Of a stretch of DNA of 64,000 nucleotides, positions 23,795 through 64,000 are shown piece after piece. The stretch's first letter is position 1, and each line of letters begins with the position of its first letter. Below the pieces are notes generated by a model. It had not been told where the DNA came from. It did not search any database and was given only the letters and a program-made list of their open reading frames with translations. The DNA is from Bacteroidota bacterium (GTDB lineage Bacteria > Bacteroidota > Bacteroidia > NS11-12g > UBA955), in the NCBI GenBank assembly GCA_027490055.1, contig JAIXYV010000106.1, positions 30,802-94,801 of the forward strand. Direction: 5' to 3'. The position numbers and the translations under genes are program-made.

Positions 23795-23945
23795 AGCATT
23801 CTATTTACTTACTTTCAAGGCATTAAGGTTAGAAAAACCTTCAATATCATTTTTTTGTCATTTTAAGGGTTAAATACTAAAATAAATTTTTTTTATTTGA
23901 TAACTTGTTTATTTTTGGACCAAAATAATTATTAGAATTCGCATT

Positions 23946-28192: not shown

Positions 28193-28480
28193 ATGCAGTC
28201 ATTTTCCTGTCATATTAGTGTTGGAACCAAGTCATTTTTGTTAATTTTGATTTTATTTATTAAAAATATTATTACATTTGAATATTAAATCAATTGTAAT
28301 TGAATGTTGAACTTGTGATTTGAATCAATCATTTTATTTATATTTATTCTAAATAAGATATCAAGGTTTTGAAAAACAATTCTCTATACAGCTCATTTAT
28401 TAATAATTTAACTTTTTGCAACTATGTGAAAAAAAATTATTAAGAAATTGATATTAAATTGCCAACCTATTAAAAAAAAT

Positions 28481-31400: not shown

Positions 31401-32596
31401 CATACGTTGATCCAGGTGCAACTGCAACTGATAACAAAGCGCCATTCAATTTGAATTCTTCAATTGTTACTACTGGTACAGTTGATACAAGAACAATTGG
31501 CAACTATGTAATCACTTACTATGTGCAAGACGTAGCTGGTAACTCTGTAACAAAAACAAGAAACGTTTGTGTTGAAGATACCAAAGCTCCAATGGTAGAA
31601 GTTCTAGGTGATACTTCAATTCAGATCGGAAGTGTTTGGATTGATCAGACATCTGCAACTGATGCCTATGATTTGACTCCAACTCTTAACAAAACATGGT
31701 GGACAGTACCAGTTAATACTTTAATAAGAGCTACATACAGCGTAACTTATGAAGCAGTTGACGGTTCAGGTAATATTTCGAATCCAGCTACTGTAAGACA
31801 TTACAGAGTTGATGACTTCATTCCTCCTGTTATTAGTTTAAACACATTTGATATAGTTCAGCATGAGGTAAGAACGCCTTACAACTCTATTGCTGCAACT
31901 GTTTCTGATAACTACTATAGCTCAGGTCAGGTTTCAATCATCAGAAAATCAAGCAATGTTAATTACAATGTTTTAGGCACATATACCGAAGTATTCGAAG
32001 CTATCGATGGATCAGGTAACATTTCAACTAAAACCAGAACAGTTAAAGTGGTAGATACAAAATCTCCTACACTTTGGGGTCAGGTTATCCATGGTTGCGT
32101 TGGTGAAAACATCTGGCCAATGTGGGGTCTGTCAACTACTGACAACTACTACAGTCCAAGTCAGTTATTACCATTAGTAGAAGTGGTTAGTCAAAACGTA
32201 AACATTTGGGAAGAAGGTATCTACTCTATCACTTACAGAGTAACCGACCCAAGTGGTAATACATCTGAAGAGTTCACCAGATTGGCGTACTTCACTTACT
32301 GGCCAAAATGTTACAACAGTACAGTATCAGTTGATGATCTGAAATCTGTTGAAGAGAAAGTAAGCGTATACCCTAACCCAAGTAACGGTATCGTAAACAT
32401 CGACCTGCAAGGTGCATTAGCGCAAACTGCAACCCTTGAAGTTTACAATGCAATGGGTCAGCTGGTAGCAAGCAAAAACTACAGCGAAGTAAGCGGTAAA
32501 TTTGATGTAGACTTAAGAGGTAATGCAGCTGGTGTTTACACTATCAAGTTAATTGCTAACGGCGAAGTAGTAACTAAACGCGTAGTGCTTCAGTAA
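28481..32596 (+). CDS. T9SS cargo protein, paralog B (~1372 aa from MNKFTNYY; the ORF-track start at 28448 is probably spurious): same architecture as paralog A with a divergent N-terminal module
   Basis: The signal peptide is FVLALFLLLGVSTASAQ. From ~aa 200 onward it aligns with paralog A at ~85-90% identity. The C-terminal sorting domain is near-identical to A. Confidence 0.85.
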   Translation: MNKFTNYYNEKMGFARYFVLALFLLLGVSTASAQYCASNATSTADEDIASVYLKGNTVTLNNVSAAPTCQTYTDWTALTPVDLSAGRQYSIVITESTCNGHYTYACNAWIDYNKNNTFESGEAVAPTSQSKNGANAVFTYTWTVPCNITPGNTRMRVVMIEGAVSNPSSACGTYTWGETEDYTVNLQLPTSVNANFIAPSSAWVKAVVKFINQNPTGYISHSWNANNDATIEAPNSVNFNYTWTTPGNKCVKLKSTNCLGSDSIVKCLNVVAPTAVPVADFVADRVTIEQYGSMRLYDLSSNGPWDWTWDVYDSTTYASSGFYPSLATGELYSDPWGNGNNEFSQNPEFAFDYPGCYTIVLTSKNDVGPSVTKRKVCYITVTLPTQYNLGYGTYGPNNDNVVGSSAGTIFDDGGPGLNYGNNQGLGSRSFLQITPCNAKKITLKMTTLKFKDAGDKLRVWDGKTPGGPGTTLLATWTMGSKAPAAVVATSGSMYLLFEADAAGVDSGYAGSYTSELGPATVPVPAFSPNSVPSYNSTPIFFTNTTQNIVGVPTWEWTIDGAQVNNNTGKDFRYTFYTDGQYEVCAEIKSCVGNNKTCKTIDVITPNQQTMLDFTASSRRPNINVDIVSLIPSSDNANRFEWTIFPTSYTLMNPPASPSTYGTGFVKYNATPGDSIPKPRLKFNSPGCYTITLKAYNSLDPTNTTKTVVKNKFICALDYCLPASYILSTDVGINRVRVVDGTNDLINNYTTSGDVSYTDYSSTVKANLTYGKSYTIEVSRTGNVDPANRKAWIDWNIDGDFDDAGEQILTESSSYNQVYSTTFTVPALSASFEGSTRLRVATNYNNENTTACGPITAGEYEDYGIVLANDNMPPVITLLGSDTVRIEVGSNYTDAGATAYDASEGNISSSLVMTTDLDAAVTGLYTVEYNVTDKSGNRAVPAIRTIIVVNDLTKPILTLNPGTSGCIEARRDNLPYVDPGATATDNKAPFNLNSSIVTTGTVDTRTIGNYVITYYVQDVAGNSVTKTRNVCVEDTKAPMVEVLGDTSIQIGSVWIDQTSATDAYDLTPTLNKTWWTVPVNTLIRATYSVTYEAVDGSGNISNPATVRHYRVDDFIPPVISLNTFDIVQHEVRTPYNSIAATVSDNYYSSGQVSIIRKSSNVNYNVLGTYTEVFEAIDGSGNISTKTRTVKVVDTKSPTLWGQVIHGCVGENIWPMWGLSTTDNYYSPSQLLPLVEVVSQNVNIWEEGIYSITYRVTDPSGNTSEEFTRLAYFTYWPKCYNSTVSVDDLKSVEEKVSVYPNPSNGIVNIDLQGALAQTATLEVYNAMGQLVASKNYSEVSGKFDVDLRGNAAGVYTIKLIANGEVVTKRVVLQ

Positions 32597-34541: not shown

Positions 34542-34607
34542 TATTAAGGGCAAAGATATTTAAACTTTTTAAATTCTTATTTTTTTGTAAAAATTCATTT
34601 AGATTAA

Positions 34608-34615
34608 TATATTTG
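34608..34615 (+). promoter_or_regulatory. -7 box TATATTTG, 5 nt upstream of the TTG start of the 2420-aa gene
   Basis: The sequence matches TAnnTTTG. Confidence 0.4.
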
Positions 34616-34620
34616 TTGTC

Positions 34621-37600
34621 TTGAAGAAAAAGTACTTTTCAAAAAACACTTTTTTTCTATTTTGTTCTTTGTTTATGGCATTGATTATCAATGCTCAGGG
34701 GAATAGATTGTCTTTTGTGGTTACCGGACCGAAGAATCTTTCCATCTGCGGGGTTAATGATTCAGCCTTTGTTGAAGCCTACAATATCTCGTCAGGACCA
34801 GTTAACAACATTACAATTAAACTAATTTTACCATCAGGCATCAATTATGTCAAAGGTTCTTTCTTTGGCACTGGTATTAGCGAAGCCAATGTTACAAATC
34901 TCAATCAACCTATTTTTAATGTTCCCAATTTATTATTAGCTAAGAATACAAAATTCAGGGTATTGCTAACGGCAGATTGCAACTTACTTACCTTTCTAAA
35001 TAACAGCAGTACGCCAACAGTAAGTTTGCGGGCAGATTATACGGGTAATTTTGATGTTGGCAGTTCAATACCGTATTCTGTAAGGGTGCCATCTGTGCAA
35101 TACGGCACTGTAACGAACCTATCATATACAGGTGATGTAGCTACCAAATTCACAAGAAGTATCACCATTGGAAATTATGGCAAAGGACCATTACGAGAGA
35201 TAAAACTTACCAGATATAATGGAAAGGATATTCAAACATTCTTTGTTAACAAAGGGAATACCGTATACAAGGGAGATACAGTAATAACCACATTTAACAC
35301 CAATCATTTCAAAACGGTAGGCAATCTTGACACATTTCTTGATCAGAATGAAACAATCACATTTACAGATTCCAATTTAATTAAAGCCTGTAAATTACTT
35401 AATACTAATTTCGAATTAAGTTGGGGTTGTGGTGGAAAATCCTGCCAGGTTAGTAAGTTATCAGGCTCTGCTTTAATCAGCAATAAAACACCAACATTAA
35501 AGGCAATTCCCTTGCCTGTTTATCCAACATGTTATAACAACAATACGTTTAAATCCGAAGTCCGTTTTGTGAATATCGGTAATATGCCTGCGATAGCTCC
35601 CCGACTTGCAATATCCTCCAACTATTACTATATGTTCTCGAGTTTTGATACTGGATCGATACGCATGAAAGTTGGTTTTAAGGGTACCTGGTACAAACCA
35701 ATCAAGGACAGCACAACGGGTTCATATAACTTAGGTTATTATGGCTGTATCGGTTTATATCCGATTGGATTATTCAGAGTTAAATGTCCGGATTTAAAAC
35801 CGAATGATACGGTCTATCTGACATGGAATACCATATCGTGTACACCACCCCCTTGTAGCAACGCCAGTATGGTGGTCAATAGCTGGGCTTATTATGCCGA
35901 TTTTAAAGATCAGTGTAAGAATCTGAAAACAGTTCCATGGGCCTGGGGAAAGGTTTACGACCAGCACTATTTTACGGGTTCTACTTTTAGTCCGACCGAC
36001 CTTATAGCCAATCAAACCGGCGAGTTCAGAACTTATATCAATTCAGCAAGTCTGTTAAATCGCAATTCATCTGCCTCCTACATAGTAGATATCATTTTAC
36101 CGAAGGGTCTCACTCACAGCAAGCAAAAGAAAGATTTCTATTTTATCAATTCAGATTTAACTGCCAACTGGAATCCAGACAGTATTGTTCAGAAAGGCGA
36201 TACTGTGAGGGCCTATTTTCCGCATCCTGTTCCAATCAATTTAACAGGTGCAGAATTGGTATATTATTTAAAAGCCGATTGTTCTAAGAGTGGTGCCAAT
36301 GGCAACCAAAACATTACTACTCAAATACGCTATATACCAGATAGAACCTGTGGAAGTAAAGAATGGATATTTTTGTATTGCCAGACACAGCAAATAAAAA
36401 TACATTGTATCAGTAATTGTGCTGGCGGTATGAAGTTCAGAAATTTTAAAGTACAAAGGATAAGTTTCGGAAGACCAGACAATGACAATGATGGAAAACC
36501 TGACGCCAGTGGTAGTTTAGATACATTAAGAGTAAGGGAAGAACGTTGCATTTATGGAGACACCATCCAGGCAGAGTATTTCGGAATAGTTAAACGGACT
36601 AGCTCGATAATTACCTGGAGAAATGCTTATATTGAAAGTACAATAACCAATGGCAGGAATCTTGACGTGGCGGGCATTCAATTATTGGTTTGGCGTCGTG
36701 GCGTAACCTTGTCTCTCAATTGTAATCAGATTAAAAGCTGGAAGACAGTGAGTGGTACAACCGCTACATTTAAAATTGATATCAGCACAGATTCAATGCC
36801 TAATTGTGTGTCTTCAGGATTTAGGTACAGCAATGATGATAGTGTGGTAGTGAAAGTAAAGTACAGGGTCAACGGTAATCTTGGTGCTACCATTCAGAAT
36901 TTAAATTTCAGCAATAGGTTTTATACCAGCAATGTCAATAATCCGACCAGCAATACCAACAAGTTTCAATGTGATACTTTTTCTGGCCAGATGATACTGG
37001 CAGGGTATTTTTTCACTACCTGTTGCAGTGATAATTATCAATTAAATTCGTGCGGTACTGTTAGCGTCAATAATTATTTTTATCTTGGTTTAGGCGGAAA
37101 CAGTTATGGCGGCAATAACTATTTTCCATATGAGTATCGAAATTTTGCAAAATTACGATCCATAAGATTTTATATGCCTGCCGGCATGAAAATGAAAAAC
37201 GCCTATATTGGCCAGTACCGTACAAGTGGTTCTAACAGGACCACATTAGAGACAAAAGATTCGTTGCGACCATTGAACATCAATGCGAATCCGATGGTCT
37301 TTGAAGTAGGCAAATTTTTCAAGGATTCGACAGGAGGTGTTATTAATCTGAGTGATGATGGTTTCCATGGCTATTTTGTAGCACAGATGGATCCTACATG
37401 CGAGATTCAGACTGGTGATCCTAACCTTATTAAATACGATTTTGTTTTTGAGCGCAAAGGCATATTTGGTAATACTTTAGATACGATAAGTTCAGGATTT
37501 ACAGACAAACTGATTTACAACAAACCTGTCTTTACTGTTAAACCCGTATCACCAACAATTTATGCGGCACAGGATACTGCAGAGTGGGAATTAGTATTCA

Positions 37601-40600
37601 CAAATTATTCTGCCAGTTTCAGTAATACCAACTCTTGGTTTGCGCCCGATAACAGTGGAGCTATTAAAGTGGTTCAGATCAGAGATGGCGGAACAAAAGA
37701 CACCTTGATGCCTTCAAAAAATGGGGTTTATAAGTTAGGAACAATACCTTTTAACACCACCCGAAAATTTAAAGTTAGGGCCATTTATAATTCTTGTAAG
37801 AAGGACAGTGTAATCTTGTATGCTGGCTGGAATTGCGCAGGCTATCCGAATGATTTAGCCAGTTATCCTTGCGTAAAAGAGCGAATACCATTGTATCTTG
37901 AACCACAGAACACACAGTATCAGGTGACATTAACAGATTCTGTCAGAGTGGCTGATTTATGTGCCTCTACACCCTACACCATGACCATAGAGAATATTGG
38001 TGCTACAGCGGGTTATTCTACAAAAGCCATCATTAATTTACCTATTGGAATGACAGTGGATCCTGGCTCCTGTTATATCCGTTATCCGCATAAGAATGCT
38101 AAGTCATCTTTATCTAATCCAGTATTAAAAAGTGGTACCACCTATGAGTGGAACTTATCTGGATTAAATACCACTATAGCCAATGGTTTTAAAGGGGTAA
38201 GCGATACTAATAAAAACAAAATAATCATCTATTTCAGAGTAAAAACTTCTTGTGATTATTCGAGTGGAAATTATATTCGAGCAAGTGCTTCCGGCAATAT
38301 AAAATGTGGCGATCCAATCATGGTTTATCCAGCCATTAGCAATCCATTAAACATTAAAGGTGTAACACGTCCATATTATACCTTACTGAAGGTTGAATCT
38401 GACTCTATTTTTCCTTGTGAAAAGCCAAGTAAAGTTCGAGTAAAAATTATTAATCTTGGTCCGGGTAAAACAGGCTCTGAAGACAAGTATCAAGCTATAT
38501 TGGTTCCAGGATTAAGCTACAACAGTAGTATGTATACAGCAAGCTATAACGCGCCTGTAGACAGTTTAACCACTACCAGAAACATTAACGGTGCAACAGA
38601 AGTAGAATTTAGTTTAAGAGATAGCATACAGCCTGGTGACAGTATGTATTTTGATTTCGGATTTAATAGCGATGGCAGATTTTTGAATTGCGGGACAGTT
38701 GACTTATACAGTCAGGCAGCAGTTAAACAAGAGGTAACTTGTGTATCCAATAATTCGAAGTGTAAAATCAATGTTGTTACCGGTAATAATTTACTGAAGC
38801 CGACTGTAGTAAAAGGGTCAGTTGGCTTTTCTGGTTTAAAAACTAAAATATTAAGTACAGCAAACGATTCAGAAATCCTATCGATGCAATACCGCATCAC
38901 GAATACCAGTTTCAGAATTGCATCGCCCAATACTATAGTTTATAAACTGGTCTATGATAAAAACAGTTCGGGTACAGTCAATTCTGGTGATATCGTTGCC
39001 TTTACAGATACGATTAAAACAGGCTTAGGTAAAAACAACTTTACAGATATTACTAAAACGATTAAAGTAAAAGCAGGACAGTCGTGTGCCCTATTTATTG
39101 CCTTAGATTCTGCCAGTTGCAGTTGTGGCTTTGCTTATGCAAAATTTCCGGTTCCGGGATTGCAGAATGCTGGCATAGATCAATCACTTTGTAGCGGTGA
39201 TACAATCAAGCTAGGTGTTACCAAAGTAAACGGTTACCGATATCTTTGGACCCCAGGAAGTGAGTTTATTTCTGATACAGTAGCTCAGCCAGTTGCTGTG
39301 ATGGAGAACACAGATAGTGCAGGAATTTTTAAGAATTATATTCTTACAACCTATAGAGGATTCTGCAATAGTAAAGACACTGTAAAAGTGGAGATTTATA
39401 AGTTACCAGCATTAAGATTACTGCAAAAAGACACATCAATTTGTGATGGAAATCAGGTTGTTTTAAAAGCAGTTTCTAAAGGAGGAACAGGTTTGCATAC
39501 CATCAAATGGAGTCCTGCTAAAACAGTGAAAGACAGCACAAAATTTACCACTTCCACCAAACCTTTAAAGACGCAAACGTATGTTGCCAGCATTGTAGAC
39601 GCTAAGCAATGCAAAGCAAAGGACAGTATGCGCATAGTGGTTTATCAGAATCCAATAGCAAAATTCACTTATCCTGAAACTTGTTTAAATTTACCATTGT
39701 TGTTAAGTGATAGCAGCAAAGTTAGTGGAGATACTATCAGTCTGCGAAAGTGGAACTTTAATGGTATTGATACCACGCAGATTAAAGACTGGTTGATAGA
39801 TTTACAAGGTAATTCAGATGCTTTAGTTTCCTTAACTATCAGAAGTGGATTTGGCTGTGAAGATACGATCGTTAAAACAGTGTATTTGAATCCATATGTT
39901 GTTGCAGATTTTTCGACCAAAGATGTATGTTTTGGAGACTCTGTAAAATTTGTCAATCTTAGCACACTATCAAAAGGCGTAATACAATCTAATATTTGGG
40001 ATTTCGGCGATGCTATAACCAGCGTAAAGACTCAAACCAAACATTTATACAATGCTGCAGACACTTATCAGGTAAAGCTTATCTCAATTAGTGATAAAAA
40101 TTGCAACGATACCATTGCAAAATCTGTAATTGTTTATCCGCGACCATCAACAGCATTTAGTATAAGTAATGTATGTCTTAAGGACAGTATTCATGCTTTT
40201 AATAGCTCAACAATTGTAAATGATTCTATTACCAGTCAGTGGTGGTATATTAATAAGGATACGATAAGTCAACAGCATTTAACATATTTATTGAGCTATG
40301 ATACATCGTATATTTTAACATTAAAGACATCAACAGCATTTGGCTGCAGAGACAGTTTAAGTAAATCAGTAGAGGTATACACAAATCCTAAAGCGCTATT
40401 TAATGTTAATCCTGTTTGTGAAGGCAAGAAGAGCACTGTTATCAGTAGTTCAAGCATTAGAAAAGGTGCTATTTCGTCCTACAATTATGCAGTTAGTGAT
40501 GGCAATAGTTTTACCAATCAGAATTTTGTCCATCAATTTGCCAAAGGCGATACTTTTGATATTAGATTAATTGTTACTTCTTCTAACAATTGCAGAGATA

Positions 40601-41883
40601 CATTAACTAAACAAGCCATAGTGTATCCTCGAATTGTACCTTCATTTAAGGTATCGGATACTTGTGTATCGGCAATGGCAGTGATAAGAGACCGGTCCAC
40701 ATTTGTCAATACCGGAATCAGTCGCTGGGTATACGATTTTGGTAATGGCGATTCGGCCTTTATCAGCAATCCATTTTATCAGTACTCAGCACCTGGCACT
40801 TATACTATAAGACAAACAGTTACCAGCAGAGAAGGATGCGTTTATGACACTACAGGTAAGGTGACTATTTATCCATTACCAAAACCTGATTTCAGAGATA
40901 CTAATAAGTGTGTCGATAACCAATTTAATTTCTTTTCAAAGTCGACCATAAGTTCGGGCACCATTAATACGTATAAATGGCATTTTGGGGACAATACCAA
41001 CTCTGTATTAAGAGATCCGGGTCATGTGTTTCCGGGAGCTGGCAACTATATAGTGAAGTTAATTGCGTCTAGTAATTTTGGCTGTGTCGATTCGATTGAA
41101 AAATCGATTGTAAGTTACCCTCCGGTACAGGTAAAATTTGGTGTTTACAATGTTTGTTTAGGAGACCCAATTGAATTTACCGATAGCAGTATCGTTCCGT
41201 CTTCGAGCATTAAACAGTACCAGTGGTGGTTTGGGGACAATGATACCTCTATGCAAAAGCAACCTTGGCACACCTATAAAACCGACGACACATTTAAAGT
41301 AAAACTGAGGATCACAACAGCTTATGATTGTGATTACGATAGCAGCACAACACTCACTGTTTATCCGGTGCCAACAGCAAATTTCAAGACCGATCCAGAT
41401 CAGGGTACCATAGTTAATCCAGAGATCCAGATTACAGATTTTAGTACTGGCGCAGATACCTTGATTTATGACTTAGGGGATGGTACTTTCTCAATGATGA
41501 GAAACCTTGTAAACAGTTATCCGGATAGTGGTACATTTACCTTGAGACAAACAGTATGGAACACCTTTGGTTGTCGGGATACCTTTATAAAAACAATTAC
41601 TATACGCTACTTATTCGTATTCAATACACCAACGGCATTTAGTCCAAATAACGATGGAATTAATGATGTATTTGCCCCTGGTGGGATAGGCTATACCAAA
41701 TATTCTATGTGGATTTATAACCGCTGGGGTGAAATGATCTATGAAACAACCGACGGTAAGGGTTGGGATGGTACCTATGCTGGAGAAGATGTCATGACGG
41801 ATGTCTATGCCGTTAGGTATAAAGTCAAAGATTTTAAGGGAAGGAATCACTATTACAGTGCTACCTTTACTTTGTTGAGATAG
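34621..41883 (+). CDS. Giant cell-surface protein (2420 aa): signal peptide, ~1500-aa Cys-rich N-terminal region of unknown fold, ~9 tandem PKD-type domains and a T9SS type B sorting domain
   Basis: The C-terminus ...FSPNNDGINDVFAPGG...IYNRWGEMIYET..GWDGTYAGEDVMTDVYAVRY is a type B sorting domain. Repeated ~85-aa units of the form ...F..GD....(N/S)....HxY...G.Y.V.L......C.D.. are PKD-like. Confidence 0.8.
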   Translation: MKKKYFSKNTFFLFCSLFMALIINAQGNRLSFVVTGPKNLSICGVNDSAFVEAYNISSGPVNNITIKLILPSGINYVKGSFFGTGISEANVTNLNQPIFNVPNLLLAKNTKFRVLLTADCNLLTFLNNSSTPTVSLRADYTGNFDVGSSIPYSVRVPSVQYGTVTNLSYTGDVATKFTRSITIGNYGKGPLREIKLTRYNGKDIQTFFVNKGNTVYKGDTVITTFNTNHFKTVGNLDTFLDQNETITFTDSNLIKACKLLNTNFELSWGCGGKSCQVSKLSGSALISNKTPTLKAIPLPVYPTCYNNNTFKSEVRFVNIGNMPAIAPRLAISSNYYYMFSSFDTGSIRMKVGFKGTWYKPIKDSTTGSYNLGYYGCIGLYPIGLFRVKCPDLKPNDTVYLTWNTISCTPPPCSNASMVVNSWAYYADFKDQCKNLKTVPWAWGKVYDQHYFTGSTFSPTDLIANQTGEFRTYINSASLLNRNSSASYIVDIILPKGLTHSKQKKDFYFINSDLTANWNPDSIVQKGDTVRAYFPHPVPINLTGAELVYYLKADCSKSGANGNQNITTQIRYIPDRTCGSKEWIFLYCQTQQIKIHCISNCAGGMKFRNFKVQRISFGRPDNDNDGKPDASGSLDTLRVREERCIYGDTIQAEYFGIVKRTSSIITWRNAYIESTITNGRNLDVAGIQLLVWRRGVTLSLNCNQIKSWKTVSGTTATFKIDISTDSMPNCVSSGFRYSNDDSVVVKVKYRVNGNLGATIQNLNFSNRFYTSNVNNPTSNTNKFQCDTFSGQMILAGYFFTTCCSDNYQLNSCGTVSVNNYFYLGLGGNSYGGNNYFPYEYRNFAKLRSIRFYMPAGMKMKNAYIGQYRTSGSNRTTLETKDSLRPLNINANPMVFEVGKFFKDSTGGVINLSDDGFHGYFVAQMDPTCEIQTGDPNLIKYDFVFERKGIFGNTLDTISSGFTDKLIYNKPVFTVKPVSPTIYAAQDTAEWELVFTNYSASFSNTNSWFAPDNSGAIKVVQIRDGGTKDTLMPSKNGVYKLGTIPFNTTRKFKVRAIYNSCKKDSVILYAGWNCAGYPNDLASYPCVKERIPLYLEPQNTQYQVTLTDSVRVADLCASTPYTMTIENIGATAGYSTKAIINLPIGMTVDPGSCYIRYPHKNAKSSLSNPVLKSGTTYEWNLSGLNTTIANGFKGVSDTNKNKIIIYFRVKTSCDYSSGNYIRASASGNIKCGDPIMVYPAISNPLNIKGVTRPYYTLLKVESDSIFPCEKPSKVRVKIINLGPGKTGSEDKYQAILVPGLSYNSSMYTASYNAPVDSLTTTRNINGATEVEFSLRDSIQPGDSMYFDFGFNSDGRFLNCGTVDLYSQAAVKQEVTCVSNNSKCKINVVTGNNLLKPTVVKGSVGFSGLKTKILSTANDSEILSMQYRITNTSFRIASPNTIVYKLVYDKNSSGTVNSGDIVAFTDTIKTGLGKNNFTDITKTIKVKAGQSCALFIALDSASCSCGFAYAKFPVPGLQNAGIDQSLCSGDTIKLGVTKVNGYRYLWTPGSEFISDTVAQPVAVMENTDSAGIFKNYILTTYRGFCNSKDTVKVEIYKLPALRLLQKDTSICDGNQVVLKAVSKGGTGLHTIKWSPAKTVKDSTKFTTSTKPLKTQTYVASIVDAKQCKAKDSMRIVVYQNPIAKFTYPETCLNLPLLLSDSSKVSGDTISLRKWNFNGIDTTQIKDWLIDLQGNSDALVSLTIRSGFGCEDTIVKTVYLNPYVVADFSTKDVCFGDSVKFVNLSTLSKGVIQSNIWDFGDAITSVKTQTKHLYNAADTYQVKLISISDKNCNDTIAKSVIVYPRPSTAFSISNVCLKDSIHAFNSSTIVNDSITSQWWYINKDTISQQHLTYLLSYDTSYILTLKTSTAFGCRDSLSKSVEVYTNPKALFNVNPVCEGKKSTVISSSSIRKGAISSYNYAVSDGNSFTNQNFVHQFAKGDTFDIRLIVTSSNNCRDTLTKQAIVYPRIVPSFKVSDTCVSAMAVIRDRSTFVNTGISRWVYDFGNGDSAFISNPFYQYSAPGTYTIRQTVTSREGCVYDTTGKVTIYPLPKPDFRDTNKCVDNQFNFFSKSTISSGTINTYKWHFGDNTNSVLRDPGHVFPGAGNYIVKLIASSNFGCVDSIEKSIVSYPPVQVKFGVYNVCLGDPIEFTDSSIVPSSSIKQYQWWFGDNDTSMQKQPWHTYKTDDTFKVKLRITTAYDCDYDSSTTLTVYPVPTANFKTDPDQGTIVNPEIQITDFSTGADTLIYDLGDGTFSMMRNLVNSYPDSGTFTLRQTVWNTFGCRDTFIKTITIRYLFVFNTPTAFSPNNDGINDVFAPGGIGYTKYSMWIYNRWGEMIYETTDGKGWDGTYAGEDVMTDVYAVRYKVKDFKGRNHYYSATFTLLR

Positions 41884-56685: not shown

Positions 56686-56964
56686 ATGGCAGCGCCTCAA
56701 AAAAATAAAGTATCAAAAACCGCAGAGAAGAAAGTGGTTAATCAGTTCATGGTTTTCAAGAAACAGAACTATATGTTATTGTTAGCTAGCTTAGCGGTTA
56801 TCGTTATTGGTTTTATCGTGATGGGCAGTGGTAAAGACAAACCATTTGATGATCCTACAAAAATTACTGTAGCGCCAATTATCGTCATATTAGGTTTTGC
56901 TTTAGGGGTATTTTCTATCCTATTCACACCTAAATCTAACGACAATCAGGAAGCAGGCAAGTGA
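56686..56964 (+). CDS. Small 2-TM membrane protein (DUF3098-like), 92 aa
   Basis: Two hydrophobic helices are visible. The gene overlaps the uppP start. Confidence 0.45.
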   Translation: MAAPQKNKVSKTAEKKVVNQFMVFKKQNYMLLLASLAVIVIGFIVMGSGKDKPFDDPTKITVAPIIVILGFALGVFSILFTPKSNDNQEAGK

Positions 56965-57776
56965 GTCTTTTTGAAGCCATCATCGTTGCCATTATAGAAG
57001 GTCTAACCGAGTATCTTCCGGTATCTTCTACGGCTCATATGATTTTTACAAGCACATTATTCGGCAACGAAAAAGATGAGTTTGTAAAAATGTTTCAGGT
57101 ATCCATTCAATTTGGTGCCATTCTGGCTGTGGTTGTTGCCTATTGGCGTAAATTCTTCGACTTTTCCAATTTCCAGTTTTATTTAAAATTAGCTTTAGCA
57201 GTTATTCCAGCTTTGGTGCTTGGTTATCTGTTTGATGATGCTATAGAAGCCGTGCTCGAAAAACCAGTTCCTATTGCTATCGTAATGGTATGTGGCGGTG
57301 TTATTTTGCTATTAATTGACCGTTGGTTCAAAACACCAGTTATTAATGACGAGAAACAGATTCCAGTTAAATCTGCTGTTACAATTGGTTTTTGGCAGTG
57401 TCTTGCTATGATGCCAGGCGTTAGCAGATCGGCGGCCTCTATCATTGGAGGTATGCAACAAAAGTTGAGCAGAACCACTGCAGCAGAATTTTCTTTCTTT
57501 CTGGCCGTACCTACCATGTTAGCCGTTACTGCCTATTCGGTGTTTTTAAAAGACTGGAATTACAATGGCACTGAAATGAAAGGCATTGGTATGATTTTGA
57601 TTAATAACGACAATCTTAAGGTGTTTGTTATAGGTAATCTTGTAGCCTTTATTGTCGCATTATTAGCCATTAAAACCTTTGTCAGTTTTTTGAATAAATA
57701 CGGCTTTAAGCCATTCGCCTGGTACCGAATTCTTGTAGGTATCGTTTTACTGATTGTTTTTTACACTCAGAATTAA
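56961..57776 (+). CDS. uppP: Undecaprenyl-diphosphatase (BacA/UppP)
   Basis: Conserved segments are MSLFEAIIVAIIEGLTEYLPVSSTAHM and ...PGVSRSAASIIGG... Confidence 0.9.
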   Translation: MSLFEAIIVAIIEGLTEYLPVSSTAHMIFTSTLFGNEKDEFVKMFQVSIQFGAILAVVVAYWRKFFDFSNFQFYLKLALAVIPALVLGYLFDDAIEAVLEKPVPIAIVMVCGGVILLLIDRWFKTPVINDEKQIPVKSAVTIGFWQCLAMMPGVSRSAASIIGGMQQKLSRTTAAEFSFFLAVPTMLAVTAYSVFLKDWNYNGTEMKGIGMILINNDNLKVFVIGNLVAFIVALLAIKTFVSFLNKYGFKPFAWYRILVGIVLLIVFYTQN

Positions 57777-58834
57777 TCCACCCAGTCTGCTATAAACAAG
57801 TTGGTATCTCTGGTGCCACCGTTGTTTCTATTGCTGCTCCACACCAGTTTTTTACCGTTAGGACTGAACATAGGGAAGGCATTAAAATTGCTTTCATCGG
57901 TAATTTTTGTAAGGTTGCTACCATCGATGTCAATCATATACAACTGGAAGGCATAGCCTCTTGGTGAGGCGTGGTTACTTGAGAATATAATTTTCTTACC
58001 AGAAGGGTGGAAGAAAGGCGCCCAGTTGGCTTTGCCTAAACGCGTAATTTGACGCAAATTCTGGCCGTTAGTATCCACTACATAGATTTCCATATTGGTT
58101 GGCGCTACGAGGCCCTGAGACAGTAAATCTTTGTATTCTTTGATCTCTTCCTCAGTCTGTGGTCTGGAGGCTCTGAAGACTAATTGTTTTCCATCTGGAG
58201 AGAAGAAGGCACCGCCATCATAGCCTAAACCAAAGGTGATTTGTTTTAAACCGCTTCCGTCGATATTCATAGTGTACAATTCCAAATCACCAGTGCGGGT
58301 ACTTGTAAAAACTATTTTATCACCTTTAGGACTGACAGTAGCTTCGGCATCATATCCCATAGAATCGGTTAATTGTTTTATCACTTTTCCTTTAAGATCA
58401 GATACGAAAATATCAAACTCAGGATATACAGGCCATACATATTTAGCTTTCGGGTTGTATGGTGCTGTTGCCGGGCAGGTATCCATGTAATGATGGGTAC
58501 TGGCAAATAAGATAGATTTATCACCGGGCATGAAGTAAGAGCAGGTGGTGCGACCGCGACCAGTACTTATTAATTGAGCCTGATAAGTCTGCATTTGCTT
58601 AGCCGCTCTCTTGATGTTCATGTTATAAATCTGGTCACATTTTAAACCCCATTTAGGATTGTTGGTTTGGAAACTCAGAAATTTACCATCAAAGCTAAAA
58701 TACGCCTCTGCGTTGTCTCCACCGAAAGTGAGCTGTTGAATATTTTTTAAATGAACTTCTTTAGCAGTGTCTTTAGGTTGAGCAGTGACTAATAAAGGAA
58801 ATATTAGGAAGCAAAGGGACAGTGATTTAAACAT
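57773..58834 (-). CDS. Secreted TolB-like beta-propeller (PD40 repeat) protein, 353 aa
   Basis: The product has a signal peptide and repeated PD40-type units (...SPKGDKIVFTSTRTGDLELYTMNIDGSGLKQIT..., ...SPDGKQLVFRASR...). Its 3' end overlaps the uppP 3' end by 4 nt in a convergent arrangement. Confidence 0.65.
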   Translation of the reverse strand: MFKSLSLCFLIFPLLVTAQPKDTAKEVHLKNIQQLTFGGDNAEAYFSFDGKFLSFQTNNPKWGLKCDQIYNMNIKRAAKQMQTYQAQLISTGRGRTTCSYFMPGDKSILFASTHHYMDTCPATAPYNPKAKYVWPVYPEFDIFVSDLKGKVIKQLTDSMGYDAEATVSPKGDKIVFTSTRTGDLELYTMNIDGSGLKQITFGLGYDGGAFFSPDGKQLVFRASRPQTEEEIKEYKDLLSQGLVAPTNMEIYVVDTNGQNLRQITRLGKANWAPFFHPSGKKIIFSSNHASPRGYAFQLYMIDIDGSNLTKITDESNFNAFPMFSPNGKKLVWSSNRNNGGTRDTNLFIADWVD

Positions 58835-58966: not shown

Positions 58967-60139
58967 TTAATAGGTGAAGGACCCATGCTGACTGATGATG
59001 CTGAGTTGTCTGGCTGGAGCAGCTTCAACACGACCAATGATTTTAGCATTGATATTAAACTGAGCAGAGATAGCTATAAGACTTGCTGCTACTCTCTCTG
59101 GCACATAAAGTTCTAAGCGGTGTCCCATGTTAAACACTTTGTACATTTCATCCCACGAAGTCTGACTTTGTTCCTGAATGGTTTTAAACAGCACTGGCGT
59201 TTCGAATAAATTATCCTTGATGATGTGCATAGGGTCTTTCACAAAATGGAGCACTTTAGTTTGCGCGCCACCTGTGCAGTGAATCATACCATGGATATCC
59301 GCTTTATGTTCTGCAAGCATTGCTTTAACGAGCGGTGCGTATGTGCGGGTAGGTGACAATACCATCTGACCAGCATTGAGTGGAATACCTGGAACAGCAT
59401 CTGTCAGTTTGAGTTTACCTGTGTAGGCCAGAGAAGCACTGAGAAGATCGTCGTAGGTTTCAGGGTATTTTTCGCGGTAAACGGCATCAAACACATCATG
59501 TCTGGCAGAGGTTAGTCCGTTACTACCCATACCGCCATTGTAATTTTTCTCGTAGGTGGCTTGACCGTCACTGGCGAATGCTACAATGACATCGCCTGGT
59601 TGAATATTGTGATTAGAAATGATCTCAGAGCGTTTAGCGCGTGCTGTCACTGTTGAATCAACGATAATGGTTTTTACTAAATCGCCAACATCTGCAGTTT
59701 CGCCGCCGCCACTGATAATATTGACACCAAAAGGACGAAGACTTTCTATAAATTCTTCGGTACCGTTGATGATTTCGGCAATCACTTCACCTGGAATTCT
59801 TTTTTTATTTCTGCCGATGGTACTTGAAAGCAGGAAATTATCAGTTATACCAATACAAAGCAGATCATCGATGTTCATGACGATGGCATCCTGAGCGATA
59901 CCTTTCCAAACAGAAATATCGCCGGTTTCTTTCCAGTAGAGGTAAGCCAGACTGCTTTTGGTACCAGCGCCATCAGCGTGAATAACATTGCAGAAGGCGT
60001 CATCCTGACCAAGAATATCGGGAATAACTTTACAGAAAGCCTGTGGGAACAAACCCTTGTCTACATTGGCAATGGCTTTATGAACATCTTCTTTTTGAGA
60101 AGAGACTCCTCTTTCGGCGTATTTATCTGTTGTTTGCAT
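58967..60139 (-). CDS. purM: Phosphoribosylformylglycinamidine cyclo-ligase (AIR synthetase), long Bacteroidetes form
   Basis: PurM N-terminal segments (...VIHADGAGTKSSLAYLYW..., ...DDLLCIGITDN...) and the C-terminal domain (...GMIHCTGGAQTKVL...) are present. The start is chosen at MQTTDKY. Confidence 0.8.
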   Translation of the reverse strand: MQTTDKYAERGVSSQKEDVHKAIANVDKGLFPQAFCKVIPDILGQDDAFCNVIHADGAGTKSSLAYLYWKETGDISVWKGIAQDAIVMNIDDLLCIGITDNFLLSSTIGRNKKRIPGEVIAEIINGTEEFIESLRPFGVNIISGGGETADVGDLVKTIIVDSTVTARAKRSEIISNHNIQPGDVIVAFASDGQATYEKNYNGGMGSNGLTSARHDVFDAVYREKYPETYDDLLSASLAYTGKLKLTDAVPGIPLNAGQMVLSPTRTYAPLVKAMLAEHKADIHGMIHCTGGAQTKVLHFVKDPMHIIKDNLFETPVLFKTIQEQSQTSWDEMYKVFNMGHRLELYVPERVAASLIAISAQFNINAKIIGRVEAAPARQLSIISQHGSFTY

Positions 60140-60203
60140 GAACACTGCAAAAATACTAAAAATCTGCAAGTCACACGAATTTAAAAAAGCTTAATTAAGC
60201 CTG

Positions 60204-61760
60204 TTAGTTGATGGGTAATCCCACCGAGAAAACAATGTTTGAACTTCTGATATTGTTGGTAACGGCATAAGACTGACCATTAGCAGAATTATTAGAATCC
60301 AGCGTATACGGCACAGTATAGAAGGCGCTTCTGCTATTGACATAGGCGATATCAAAGGCATAGGCTTTGGTTTTAATACCGAAGCCAAGGGTATAAATAT
60401 TATTAACCAAATCTTTGACATATGGCACAGCACCGTTGCGATACGGACTAGGATTGCGGGCATACCCAGCTCTGAAGCGGTAATTGTCCAAGATATATTC
60501 TGCGCCTACTCTTAGGTTAACTGCGCTTGAATTAAGCAAACTCCGTATTCGCAGGTTTTCTTGAGTGAAATTATAGTCAGAGGCATTGGCTTTGGTCGGA
60601 CTAAGATTGGCGCTTGCGTAGTTAACCACTTCCAAATCAAGGGCAATGAACCCAGTGTTTTTATCTATGAGTGCCAGACTGAAAATATTTCTTGAGGGTG
60701 ATGTTACTTTGTAATTATAGATAGCGGAAGGCGTGCTCATTTTCTGACCTACTCTGAGACTGTCAAATGGGTCGCGAGCCCCAAAGTCGTATGCCGTAGC
60801 AATCGTATAGTTATAAGAATCCTTTAGATTGTATACAGTTGGGGAGTGGAAGGCATAGCCAATTCTTACGTATTCGTTAGGCGAAAAATTGACCCCTATT
60901 TTTGCATTTAATCCTAAGCCACTGGTTTTAACATATTCGTTCAATTCAACAGATTTAATATCTTTCACCGGACTATTTCTCACATCTGTCTCGAGGAAGG
61001 TGCTATTGCTGATGTATCGCACACTTTTGGCGCCTACACTTATTCCGAATAATAGTTTATGCTGATAGTTGGCTGCGAAACTGACATTATAATCATTGAT
61101 AGCTCCTTTAGTGAGCAAACTGCCAAGCTGATTCACTTTTATGGGTGCATTTGCGCCATAAGCAGAGATATATCTAGGGGTTGGACTAAGCGTATCTTTA
61201 TCAATCGCCCAGGTTGAGTAGGCGAGATGTTCAATAGAATAACGACTAAATTCTCTGGGTGTATAGCCAAACTCGTTGGCGCGGTCGGCCCAGTTCTGAG
61301 TAATACTACTGGAACTATTGACTGCATTATACAAACTGCGGTTGTGCAGGTTATTAAGTCGGTTCATGTTAAAACCCAAAGTAAAACTTACAAATCCTGT
61401 TGGTTTTTTATTTTCGAAATCCTCTCCGGGAATTACAAATGCGAATCCCACATTGGGCAAATTAAAATTGAATTTTTTATCGGTTAAATCTTTATTGATA
61501 TAAGTAGCAGTATTTTTTACATTGTAGAAAGATGTACTAAATCCGAACTGAGATTTTCTAAATCGGGCCATACCGGCGGGATTGAAGGCAGCGCAGGAAA
61601 GATCGGCGCCTACAGATCCGAATGCACCTGCTATACCGTAAGAACGAGCAGTACTTCCAATAGATTGAGCAGAATATCTGATAGCATCTGCTTCATTTTG
61701 AGCAATGATATTGTCTGCCAGAAAAAAAGAAAGTACCGTTACTACTATTTTAAATTTCAT
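60204..61760 (-). CDS. FadL/OMPP1-family-like outer-membrane beta-barrel protein (518 aa)
   Basis: The product has a signal peptide. The N-terminal ...IRYSAQSIGSTARSYGIAGAFGSVGADLSCAAFNPAGMARF motif is typical of FadL-like (and PorV-like) barrels, and the C-terminal aromatic ends in ...FSVGLPIN. Confidence 0.55.
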   Translation of the reverse strand: MKFKIVVTVLSFFLADNIIAQNEADAIRYSAQSIGSTARSYGIAGAFGSVGADLSCAAFNPAGMARFRKSQFGFSTSFYNVKNTATYINKDLTDKKFNFNLPNVGFAFVIPGEDFENKKPTGFVSFTLGFNMNRLNNLHNRSLYNAVNSSSSITQNWADRANEFGYTPREFSRYSIEHLAYSTWAIDKDTLSPTPRYISAYGANAPIKVNQLGSLLTKGAINDYNVSFAANYQHKLLFGISVGAKSVRYISNSTFLETDVRNSPVKDIKSVELNEYVKTSGLGLNAKIGVNFSPNEYVRIGYAFHSPTVYNLKDSYNYTIATAYDFGARDPFDSLRVGQKMSTPSAIYNYKVTSPSRNIFSLALIDKNTGFIALDLEVVNYASANLSPTKANASDYNFTQENLRIRSLLNSSAVNLRVGAEYILDNYRFRAGYARNPSPYRNGAVPYVKDLVNNIYTLGFGIKTKAYAFDIAYVNSRSAFYTVPYTLDSNNSANGQSYAVTNNIRSSNIVFSVGLPIN

Positions 61761-61762
61761 TA

Positions 61763-62620
61763 TTATCTTCTTCGAGTACTACCCCCTGAACCTCCTGAAC
61801 TGCGGTCGCTGCTACCCCCTGAATTGCCGCCTGAACTTCTTGAACCGCTGCTACCTGAACCCGAACTTCTGTCGCTACTACCATTGCCATACCATTTGTC
61901 ATTGCCAGAAGAACTATTGTTATTGCGCGAATTGTTTTGAGGTTGAGTAACAGTAGTATTGGAAGAAGGAACATTGTTAGAGGATCCTGTTCTTCTGTGG
62001 CTGTTGGGGTAAGTTGTCTGATTATTTCTGCTTGGTTGATTGTAGTAATAGTAGTTATTGTAATGAGGGTTGAAGTAACCATAATTATAACCATAACCGT
62101 AACCATAGCCATAAGAACACGGATTAAAGAAATAAGGATTGTGATAGTAACTTGGGTAATAGCCATACATCCATGAATTACCCCAGCCGTTTGAGAAGAA
62201 AGGGTTGTAGAAAGGCATATTGTAGCCGTAATAAGGAGAAAACGGACTGTTAAAACCACCCATGTAGCCAAAGCGGGGATCGACATAAGCCATACCCAAT
62301 GACCATCCGTTAAACATGTTGTAAGAGACACTTGGCACTATAGTCGGACGATAAGCATCGTAATGAAATCTTCTTGATGTGCCGAAATTTCTGAAACGAT
62401 TAGCATAAGAATTGGTATAGTTACCAGCATTGCTGGGTTCTGATTTTTCGTTCGATTCGGCATATGAGCGCAGAGCAGGAGGTGGTTCTGCTTTCTTTCT
62501 TGTATCTGAAGCTGTGAAGTACACATCATCAGTTCGGCCTGTCACTGTGGAAGCCTGTTTTTGTATGGTACAGGAAACAATCAGAAGGCTAAGAGACGAG
62601 AAATAAAGAAAATGTTTCAT
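61763..62620 (-). CDS. Extremely Tyr/Gly/Asn/Ser-rich low-complexity lipoprotein (285 aa), 2 nt upstream of the FadL-like OMP gene
   Basis: The lipobox is LLIVSC. The central region is ...PYYGYNMPFYNPFFSNGWGNSWMYGYYPSYYHNPYFFNPCSYGYGYGYGYNYGYFNPHYNNYYYYNQ..., and the C-terminal tail is SG/SR-rich (...SSGSGSSGSRSSGGNSGGSSDRSSGGSGGSTRRR). Confidence 0.55.
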   Translation of the reverse strand: MKHFLYFSSLSLLIVSCTIQKQASTVTGRTDDVYFTASDTRKKAEPPPALRSYAESNEKSEPSNAGNYTNSYANRFRNFGTSRRFHYDAYRPTIVPSVSYNMFNGWSLGMAYVDPRFGYMGGFNSPFSPYYGYNMPFYNPFFSNGWGNSWMYGYYPSYYHNPYFFNPCSYGYGYGYGYNYGYFNPHYNNYYYYNQPSRNNQTTYPNSHRRTGSSNNVPSSNTTVTQPQNNSRNNNSSSGNDKWYGNGSSDRSSGSGSSGSRSSGGNSGGSSDRSSGGSGGSTRRR

Positions 62621-62659
62621 AAGCTCATATTTTTGTTAGGCGCAAAGGCATTTTATAAA

Positions 62660-62667
62660 TACTTTTG
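62660..62667 (+). promoter_or_regulatory. -7 box TACTTTTG upstream of proS
   Basis: The sequence matches TAnnTTTG, 39 nt before the ATG. Confidence 0.4.
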
Positions 62668-62706
62668 CACTATCAAATTTACAAGAATTATTCCAAAAAT
62701 ACTAAT

Positions 62707-64000
62707 ATGGCTTTCGAGAAGGTAAAAAGAAGTGATAACTACAGCGAATGGTACAATAACCTGGTTAAAAACGCTGATTTGGCTGAACATGCAGACGTAA
62801 AAGGATGTATGGTAATTAAGCCCTATGGTTATGCTATCTGGGAGAAAATGCAGGCACAACTCGACAAAATGTTTAAGCAAACGGGTCACGTTAACGCCTA
62901 TTTTCCTTTACTGATTCCTAAATCATTTTTTGAAAAAGAAGAGAAGAATGCCGAAGGTTTTGCTAAAGAATGTGCTGTTGTAACACATTACCGATTAAAG
63001 GTTGATGAGAATCATAAAATCATTGTTGATCCGGAAGCAAAACTGGAAGAAGAATTGATTATTCGTCCGACCAGTGAGGCCATTATCTGGAATACTTACA
63101 AAGGCTGGATTCAGAGCTACAGAGATTTGCCATTACTGATCAATCAGTGGGCGAATGTGATGCGTTGGGAAATGCGTACTCGTTTGTTTTTAAGAACCTC
63201 TGAGTTCTTATGGCAGGAGGGTCATACCGCCCACAGCACAGCCGAAGAGGCTTTAGTAGAAACCAAGCAGATGTTGGATGTGTATGCTGAATTTGCTGAA
63301 AATTTCTTAGCGGTGCCAGTAATGAAAGGTGTTAAAACCGAGAACGAGCGTTTTGCAGGTGCTGTTGAAACGTATTGTATAGAAGGTTTGATGCAGGATG
63401 GAAAAGCTTTACAAATGGGAACTTCACACTTCCTTGGACAGAACTTTGCCAAAGCATTTGATGTTAAATTTCAGACCAAAGAAGGTAAATTAGAATATGT
63501 TTGGGCCACCAGCTGGGGCGTTTCTACCCGATTAATGGGTGCTTTAGTAATGGCTCATAGCGATGACGAAGGTTTGGTGCTGCCTCCAAAACTGGCGCCA
63601 ATACAAGTAGTAATCGTTCCGATCTATCGTTCTGACGAAGAATTTGAAAAAGTGTCTGCCGCTGCCGCTGCCATTAAAAAGCAATTGGAAGCATTAGATA
63701 TCAGCGTTAAGTTTGACAACCGCGATACCCACAAACCAGGTTATAAATTTGCTGAATGGGAATTGAAAGGTGTGCCTTTAAGAATTGGTATTGGTCCGAG
63801 AGACCTTGAAAACGGCACGGTTGAATTAGCCCGCCGAGACACCAAAGAAAAATCTGTTGTAGCCATTGAAGGCATAGATGCTCATGTAAAGAACCTCCTG
63901 AACGAGATTCAGGAAGCTATTTACAACAGAGCCTTAGAGTTCAGAAATACCAGCATCCATCAGGTAAACACCTGGGATGAGTTTCTTGATGCAATCAATA
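62707..64000 (+). CDS. proS: Proline--tRNA ligase, eukaryote/archaeal-type (N-terminal ~430 aa; the 3' end lies outside the window)
   Basis: The N-terminus [49 protein letters not shown]... matches the class II ProRS of Bacteroidetes. This CDS is not in the supplied ORF track because it runs off the window. Confidence 0.9.

Follow-up and report, generated by a model that had tools for sequence, protein, structure and literature searches.

We analysed a stretch of 64,000 nucleotides (the window) from a Bacteroidota bacterium (NCBI GenBank assembly GCA_027490055.1, contig JAIXYV010000106.1, positions 30,802 to 94,801 of the forward strand), in which a gene for a lipoprotein rich in Tyr, Gly and Asn directly precedes a gene for an outer-membrane barrel of the FadL family. 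We are highly confident that the two genes are real and form a conserved functional pair. The explanation that accounts best for them overall, to which we give a probability of about 45%, is that they encode a conserved barrel-lipoprotein module of the cell envelope, with a layout like that of BamG and BamH. The original prediction, made from the letters of the window, had described an operon of a 285-aa lipoprotein, a 2-nt gap, a 518-aa barrel and purM downstream, and these coordinates agree with ours (Table 1). It had missed, however, that the pair is no peculiarity of this genome, the two genes recurring next to proS in many Bacteroidota lineages.

The arrangement of the locus is conserved. 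In close relatives, a divergent proS is followed by the lipoprotein gene and then by the barrel gene, and the same order was present in four of four genomes with distant barrel homologues (25-33% identity): Hymenobacter sediminicola, a 1.7-Mb Bacteroidia contig, a Flavobacterium metagenome-assembled genome (MAG) and a Ferruginibacter MAG. The genes on the far side of the pair differ among these four. A scan of GTDB (one genome per species) with a 15-sequence barrel alignment returned at least 528 barrel relatives, of which the best 80 loci were kept; these include Bacteroidales, Flavobacteriales, Chitinophagales, Saprospiraceae, Lentimicrobiaceae and Marinilabiliales (Labilibaculum, Marinifilum), among others. 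Linkage of the pair, the conservation of which the original prediction had proposed to check in relatives, recurs in about 85 of the 89 loci of the resulting set, from many Bacteroidota orders; a barrel gene without linkage elsewhere, which the original prediction had named as counting against the pair, is not what these loci show. A scripted census of the 89 loci yielded 75 complete partner proteins bearing a lipobox, 73 of them unique, and the remaining loci are mostly truncated contigs or cases missed by the start-site rule. Two apparent exceptions were checked: one (L042) has an ordinary signal peptide and no lipobox, and the other (L054) lies in an assembly with Ns and a frameshift. The gap between partner and barrel genes has a median of 38 nt across loci, and in the window the two nucleotides 'TA' separate the lipoprotein stop codon from the barrel start codon. 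Wherever the contig extends far enough, proS lies divergently upstream; virtually all Bacteroidota loci that we examined have it beside the pair, and no other neighbour is constant. The pair and proS may share a divergent promoter region. Several GTDB representative MAGs with the pair bear implausible species names ('Chitinophaga pinensis isolate MH-08apr19-138', 'Chryseobacterium gleum' and 'uncultured Bifidobacteriaceae' are examples), and the taxon labels of the loci concerned (L012, L015, L078, L056 and L070) are not to be taken at face value.

The lipoprotein begins with MKHFLYFSSLSLLIVSC, a signal peptide that ends in the lipobox LLIVSC with an invariant Cys, as expected of a bacterial lipoprotein, and lipidation at Cys17 is thus predicted. 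The lipobox and the aromatic, Gly-rich tract of the original prediction are both present. Residues 91-205 consist to 71% of Y, G, N, F, P and W (Y 23%, N 14%, G 12%, P 11%), and residues 206-285 are made up largely of S (32%), G (19%), N (15%) and R (11%), ending in STRRR. The earlier reading had suggested examining composition and disorder. Among the 112 six-frame open reading frames (ORFs) of the window the lipoprotein is a clear outlier in composition: 28% of its best 86-aa stretch is Tyr and 81% is YGNFPW, whereas the other ORFs do not exceed 16% and 51%. An AlphaFold2 (AF2) model built with an alignment contains no confident domain (mean predicted local distance difference test score, pLDDT, 37; predicted template-modelling score, pTM, 0.15), and the protein is predicted to be largely disordered, with no stable fold. 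Searches of Pfam and NCBIfam gave no family match. The database holds 22 homologues (37-95% identity), all from Bacteroidota metagenome bins and all 'hypothetical', and none of them carries a Pfam domain.

The alignment of these homologues (A1) has 30 invariant columns. Near the N-terminus they include the lipid Cys, then G28, D31, Y34, F35 and T36 (in GRTDDVYFT), and Y72, R75 and F79; inside the aromatic tract, NSPFSPYYG..MP..PF, P156, N161 and P162; and on the C-terminal side, R209, R210 and the last three arginines. Because the 'low-complexity' tract holds invariant positions, selection must act on the sequence and not on composition alone. The tract had been called 'prion-like', a label that reflects composition only; its 11% Pro and its invariant residues point instead to a specific interaction.

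Could the 285-aa ORF nevertheless be a spurious reading of repetitive DNA? In favour of this, the low-complexity stretch is crossed by a number of ORFs that overlap one another on the two strands. The homologues, however, are 37-95% identical in frame and keep the lipobox Cys, the motifs and the C-terminus invariant; the lipoprotein at the equivalent position in Flavobacterium johnsoniae (Fjoh_4940) has been detected by mass spectrometry; and no tandem DNA repeat was found. The original prediction had itself named absence or lack of conservation in all close relatives as the sign of a spurious ORF, and the 22 homologues with their invariant residues are the opposite of that. We therefore regard an artefact as ruled out by the conservation data, with practically no probability left to it.

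The repeat question also concerns the tail, which had been described as encoded by imperfect tandem DNA repeats of about 24 nt. Tandem Repeats Finder found no array of about 24 nt in the lipoprotein DNA, reporting only a 9-nt array (2.2 copies) and a 6-nt array (6.5 copies, encoding YGYGYG). When the final 180 nt were scanned for periods and compared with codon shuffles, 24 nt gave z=1.6, and the sole weak signal in the tail was a 66-nt duplication (GSSDRSSG twice, 21 of 36 nt identical). The tail is compositionally biased and is not a DNA repeat array. The mirror ORFs that these repeats were said to generate on the + strand do exist over the low-complexity DNA (61665-61940, 61705-61950 and 61937-62176). 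Tandem repeats do occur in the tails of some family members, if not in the window, because the partner protein of one Bacteroidia MAG (L007:3369-4955) has four near-perfect protein repeats (KQMESTPRPRQNYQYESTPPSSNP) in its polar tail.

The middle genes of the four distant genomes code for products of 214-528 aa, which ordinary searches do not detect as homologues. All four nevertheless have the same build: a lipobox comes first, with D(D/G)(V/I)Y(Y/F/N) a short way behind its Cys, and a stretch rich in Tyr, Trp and Gly is followed by a polar tail and a basic C-terminus. Of the 73 unique partner proteins, 55 have a DDVY[YF]-like motif at +9 to +15 from the lipid Cys (at about 11 residues in general), a Y-[AS]-x-R-[IL]-[RK]-R-F-like motif is present in 50, and at least two of the last five residues are R or K in 69; the best 60-residue window is usually 70-95% Y/W/F/G/N/P. 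Searching with a Bacteroidaceae-type member retrieved 428 further proteins, none with a Pfam domain and all unnamed save for two automatic mis-annotations of low-complexity sequence. The mainstream alignment (A4) contains a conserved core of about 70 residues (DDYYDYEYATRIRRF...YYD.YYTN.YWY..NPY.YG.S.Y.GY.WW), and in it the Y-[AS]-x-R-[IL]-[RK]-R-F-like motif is invariant. Eight partner proteins from different orders, scanned against Pfam and NCBIfam, belonged to no family. When the window's short subfamily (A1) was compared with the mainstream family (A4) by hhalign, the two matched with 98.5% probability over the N-terminal ~41 columns only, and a hidden Markov model (HMM) of the window subfamily, run against 1.84 billion representatives, recovered 42 clusters and did not reach the mainstream family. 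In some partners the lipobox Cys is absent (L042:3387-4541, from an uncultured Saprospiraceae, and P0154 and P0198 in A4); these carry an ordinary signal peptide, cleaved just before the DDLYY/DDVYY motif.

The second gene encodes a protein that passes the Pfam threshold for PF03349 Toluene_X (FadL/OMPP1/TodX) by a narrow margin (32.3 bits, cut-off 29.7, E 4.9e-8), and many of its 148 homologues have precomputed PF03349 matches. Its AF2 model (pLDDT 90.4) places N-terminal helices at residues 23-66, followed by long strands with large loop insertions, and thus predicts a FadL-type fold with an N-terminal hatch. Against the PDB, the top 26 Foldseek matches are all FadL, TodX, CymD or BamG (probability 1.00, TM score 0.55-0.65), with E-values of 2e-15 for FadL and about 1e-13 for three solved BamG chains from three species. 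FadL barrels are plugged by their own hatch, and here the hatch (aa 21-66) is the most conserved part of the protein. A signal peptide (aa 1-20) precedes the mature N-terminus at the invariant Q21, and the conserved positions are Q21, D25, R28, A38, R39, G45, G51, D53 and N60-P61-x-G63; beyond the hatch, D375 and E421 are conserved as well. The functional importance of the corresponding FadL NPA motif is reflected in PDB mutant entries (N33A, P34A, delta-NPA). A barrel profile (A2) searched against the PDB matched the P. aeruginosa FadL homologue 3dwo, TbuX and PorV (E 0.006) and no BamG chain at E<=10; the single sequence matched nothing at E<=10, and its N-terminal 92 residues gave chance matches only. 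The window contains no second barrel of this family.

Compared with FadL, TodX and TbuX, the window barrel shares the Pfam assignment, the best Foldseek matches (E about 1e-15), the profile matches to 3dwo and TbuX, and the invariant NPA(G). It differs in that identity is only 10-15%, in its large insertions, in the invariant Gln with which the mature protein starts and in an apparently longer N-terminal segment, and in having an obligatory partner gene beside it, whereas classical FadL genes have none. The original prediction had called the barrel FadL/PorV-like, and the two halves of that description fared differently. PorV, like the window barrel, is a Bacteroidota-specific FadL-like barrel and binds polypeptide cargo, and the window genome does encode cargo of the type IX secretion system (T9SS); but the Foldseek TM score to PorV is 0.40-0.44 (E 8e-6 at 0.44), against 0.60-0.65 to FadL and BamG, the profile match is at E 0.006, the NCBIfam PorV2 model scores 16.2 bits against a cut-off of 325, which places the barrel outside PorV, and no porU lies nearby. 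The FadL part thus stands, on the Pfam match and the fold, and the PorV part is weak. With its relatives, the barrel makes up a third clade of FadL barrels in Bacteroidota, besides those of BamG and PorV. Barrels of the window clade end in ...VGLPIN, ...ISLD or ...FNID, while distant members end in an aromatic F, as is typical of the beta-signals of outer-membrane proteins (OMPs); the window clade seems to have a short extension at its C-terminus, which recalls the C-tail by which BamG contacts BamD.

A counterpart of the pair is known in F. johnsoniae, where Fjoh_4939 is a proline-tRNA ligase, Fjoh_4940 a signal-peptidase-II (SPII) 'periplasm-facing lipoprotein, function unknown' and Fjoh_4941 a FadL-like OMP (PMC12045153). 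Of six tryptic peptides listed for Fjoh_4941 in the proteomic tables of the BAM (β-barrel assembly machinery) paper, three match the Flavobacterium member of the barrel family in colinear order, two of these contiguously, with scores above every shuffle. Given the proS synteny and these peptide matches, Fjoh_4940/4941 is the orthologous pair. When TamL, a factor in outer-membrane homeostasis, is depleted, Fjoh_4941 increases 5.6-fold and Fjoh_4940 2.6-fold, and the authors propose, as the genes are neighbours, that the two are functionally linked (PMC12045153). The BAM tables list Fjoh_4941 (A5FA29) as a 55-kDa OMP whose abundance is significantly changed in BAM-subunit depletion strains. The pair has therefore already been noticed in a proteome, without a description of family, motifs, disorder or phylogeny. 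Our search of the literature for the family, or for a periplasmic Tyr-rich disordered lipoprotein, found only this passing mention of Fjoh_4940/4941.

These data bear on whether the two products work together at all. The barrel could simply import fatty acids or other hydrophobic compounds, as FadL-type barrels ordinarily do, with the lipoprotein an independent spacer or tether that happens to share its promoter and forms no complex with it. Passing the Pfam FadL threshold, keeping the NPA(G) hatch motif and adopting the FadL fold are all consistent with such an importer. Yet the order and adjacency of the genes are kept across several orders, while every neighbour except proS changes, the gaps between them are short, and both proteins rise together on TamL depletion. 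We consider two independent proteins unlikely.

The closest precedent for a barrel-lipoprotein module comes from the Bacteroidota BAM, in which the lipoprotein BamH docks via its lipidated N-terminal tail on the FadL-like barrel BamG, and in which a paralogous, adjacent bamG2-bamH2 operon (Bt1785/1786) exists, as described in two papers of 2025 (PMC12611786, PMC12578637). The window pair resembles BamG-BamH in combining a lipoprotein with a FadL-fold barrel (14-stranded in BamG) whose N-terminus is highly conserved, at a TM score of 0.60-0.65, and it resembles BamG2-BamH2 in the adjacency of the two genes. The differences are also clear: the window barrel is about 100 residues larger than BamG and is not orthologous to it, whether BamG is represented by Fjoh_1412, by Bt4367 or by the P. 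gingivalis protein. BamH is a folded two-domain surface lipoprotein with a carbohydrate-binding-like fold and an export signal, whereas the window partner, at pLDDT 37 and with no Pfam family, is predicted to be disordered and has no such signal. We thus rejected the identification of the barrel as BamG itself, given that it has no profile match to BamG chains and that its F. johnsoniae counterpart is Fjoh_4941 and not Fjoh_1412.

The pair might still be an alternative BAM accessory, a paralogue set of BamG/BamH comparable to BamG2/BamH2 that aids OMP or lipoprotein assembly. The structural similarity to the three BamG chains is as good as that to FadL, BamG2/BamH2 is likewise a barrel-lipoprotein operon, and the abundance of Fjoh_4941 responds to depletion of BAM subunits. 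A drop of an OMP on BAM depletion, however, is expected for any BAM client. The A2 profile finds a FadL homologue, TbuX and PorV and yet no BamG chain, and BamG and BamH of F. johnsoniae are encoded by other genes (Fjoh_1412 and Fjoh_0823, respectively). The purified F. johnsoniae BAM preparation names only BamA and five partner subunits (BamD, G, H, M and P), with no Fjoh_4940 or Fjoh_4941 among them. Together with the contrast between a folded BamH and a predicted disordered partner, this makes an accessory role in BAM very unlikely.

Which way does the lipoprotein face? The rule used to recognise surface lipoproteins of Bacteroidota asks for at least two acidic residues within about six positions after the lipid Cys (PMC12578637). 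In the window protein the Cys is followed by TIQKQA, with no acidic residue, and in all 73 unique partner proteins the six positions behind the Cys hold at most one. Because this export signal is lacking, the default prediction is an anchor in the inner leaflet of the outer membrane, with the chain facing the periplasm. The original prediction had favoured a dedicated export or surface-display pair, in which the barrel presents the lipoprotein and the aromatic, Gly-rich tract serves as an adhesive or prion-like coat. On its extracellular side, a FadL-like barrel of Bacteroidota can indeed carry a surface lipoprotein (BamG-BamH) or secreted cargo (PorV), the window barrel has long strands and large loop insertions, and its N-terminus (Q21, D25, R28) could protrude via a lateral opening, as in BamG. 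Against this, the export signal is found in 0 of 73 partners, Fjoh_4940 is classed as periplasm-facing, non-lipidated variants processed by signal peptidase I (SPI) exist, the similarity to PorV is weak, and 11% Pro with invariant positions is atypical of amyloid or prion domains. Surface display thus finds little backing in these data, and we consider it improbable.

Returning to the barrel-lipoprotein module that we favour, the first gene would yield a lipid-anchored, mostly disordered protein with DDVY[FY], Y-x-x-R-h-R-x-F, a Tyr/Gly(/Trp/Asn/Pro)-rich tract and a Ser/Gly tail ending in two or three Arg, and the second a FadL-family barrel of roughly 500 residues with a highly conserved N-terminal hatch. 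By its N-proximal motifs the lipoprotein may bind to the barrel, in the way that BamH attaches to BamG by its lipidated N-tail, and the long Tyr/Arg-rich disordered chain, anchored in the inner leaflet of the outer membrane, would reach into the periplasm. Such a chain could act in two ways. First, it could receive or buffer hydrophobic cargo or lipids that pass the FadL-type channel. Second, it could be a multivalent tether or scaffold, the cationic tip of which reaches anionic partners such as peptidoglycan, phospholipid or conserved acidic residues of the barrel. A role in the handling of envelope lipids or hydrophobic molecules is the most economical guess, because the FadL scaffold is kept, with its invariant NPA(G), and because both proteins rise on TamL depletion; as a specific mechanism, argued from analogy, a part for the pair in envelope or lipid homeostasis is possible but rather doubtful. 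A scaffold, gel or tether function is also possible, because a composition of Tyr plus Arg is the grammar of multivalent 'sticker' proteins.

Several points weigh against this reading. The unity of the partner family is argued from synteny, from short motifs and architecture, and from composition. Lipid anchoring, judged by the presence of a lipobox, is not universal in the family. The composition of Fjoh_4940 is taken from a homologue in a Flavobacterium MAG, and the periplasmic orientation from a sequence rule. A physical complex of the two proteins is suggested by analogy, and a function by analogy together with a single proteomic response. Finally, nothing in this reading accounts for the kept adjacency to proS.

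Systems outside Bacteroidota offer more distant comparisons. Among Proteobacteria, RcsF-OmpA/C/F and LptE-LptD are lipoprotein-in-barrel complexes, and RcsF uses a disordered linker. As in the window, an outer-membrane lipoprotein is married to a beta-barrel in these complexes, but there is no relation in sequence or fold, and nothing here points to threading through the barrel. In low-complexity domains of the FUS/FET type, a Tyr/Gly/Ser/Asn-rich tract is followed by a Gly/Ser-rich tract that contains Arg. The likeness of the window lipoprotein to these is one of compositional grammar only, without homology, and the window protein differs in being bacterial, secreted and predicted to be lipid-anchored, with 11% Pro and invariant motifs. 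The partner might even represent an undescribed class of envelope protein, in which a disordered Tyr/Arg 'sticker' chain, nucleated on the barrel, builds a gel or condensate-like layer or, with its cationic tip, a bridge from the outer membrane to the peptidoglycan or the inner membrane, and provides hydrophobic molecules and lipids with a general path or buffer on their way through the Bacteroidota periplasm. We hold this to be a long shot; if true, a sticker-chain protein would serve a housekeeping function and be as widespread in the phylum as the BamG and BamH subunits.

The outer membrane of Bacteroidota is built differently from that of Proteobacteria, and recent BAM structures have revealed that FadL-like barrels were recruited there as a place for lipoproteins to dock. 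Our pair seems to be another widespread module of this type. It occurs in Flavobacteriales, Chitinophagales, Cytophagales and the Bacteroidales of the gut, and F. johnsoniae makes both proteins, which respond when the lipids of the outer membrane are under stress. For a bacterial envelope, a FUS-like, disordered and lipid-anchored protein that is conserved is unusual, and the partner family is absent from Pfam and NCBIfam. Should the pair prove important for the traffic of lipids or hydrophobic compounds or for the architecture of the envelope, it would close a gap in our picture of outer-membrane maintenance in this phylum. It can be tested in F. johnsoniae or B. thetaiotaomicron, for which genetics and cryo-EM pipelines are already established.

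Table 1. Features of the lipoprotein-barrel locus and its immediate neighbours, in window coordinates.
Feature	Position	Strand	Basis
proS (prolyl-tRNA synthetase), 5' part, runs off the window	62707..64000	+	translation; Pfam tRNA-synt_2b and HGTP_anticodon
Divergent intergenic region between proS and the lipoprotein gene, 86 nt, presumed shared promoter region	62621..62706	.	coordinates
Lipoprotein gene, 285 aa, ATG at 62620, TAA at 61765-61763	61763..62620	-	ORF, homologues, alignment
Signal peptide and lipobox, aa 1-17, Cys17 predicted lipidation site	62570..62620	-	C17 invariant in A1
DDVYF motif, aa 31-35, 14 residues after the lipid Cys	62516..62530	-	D31, Y34, F35 invariant in A1
YANRFRNF motif, aa 72-79, local form of Y-[AS]-x-R-[IL]-[RK]-R-F	62384..62407	-	Y72, R75, F79 invariant
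Tyr/Asn/Gly/Pro/Phe-rich tract, aa 91-205	62006..62350	-	composition, outlier status, invariant columns
Polar Ser/Gly/Asn/Arg tail, aa 206-285	61766..62005	-	composition; invariant RR 209-210, W243, C-terminal STRRR
FadL-family barrel gene, 518 aa, ATG at 61760, ends at 60204	60204..61760	-	ORF, Pfam Toluene_X, AF2, Foldseek
NPAG motif in the barrel hatch, aa 60-63	61572..61583	-	N60, P61, G63 invariant in 52 sequences
purM, downstream on the same strand	58967..60169	-	AIRS/AIRS_C domains

A sigma-70 consensus scan, which does not extend to the promoter types of Bacteroidota, found nothing in the proS-lipoprotein intergenic region; the scan for sigma-70 promoters and terminators gave fewer matches than shuffled sequence and was uninformative. 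On the other side of the pair, purM is not part of the conserved module: the gene downstream of the barrel differs in every other lineage examined (GIY-YIG, LpxK, Cas6, miaA and others). The purM ORF is listed from a TTG; an in-frame ATG ten codons downstream (MQTTDKYAERG...) looks like the likelier start and would widen the gap between barrel and purM to about 64 nt. The purM product scores 107 bits against TIGR00878, well below the cut-off of 236, as a divergent long-form PurM. Two envelope genes that are not conserved neighbours of the pair lie beyond it, one for a TolB-like PD40 beta-propeller protein with a signal peptide (57773-58834, - strand), after purM, and one for the undecaprenyl-diphosphatase BacA/UppP (56961-57776, + strand), just downstream. 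Further away, three very large proteins of 1411, 1388 and 2426 aa are encoded on the + strand at 23904-28139, 28430-32596 and 34603-41883; they combine Ig-like, GEVED and PKD domains with type IX secretion C-terminal signals (Por_Secre_tail, CHU_C). Because the window encodes proteins with these signals, the organism is a T9SS-bearing member of the Bacteroidota.

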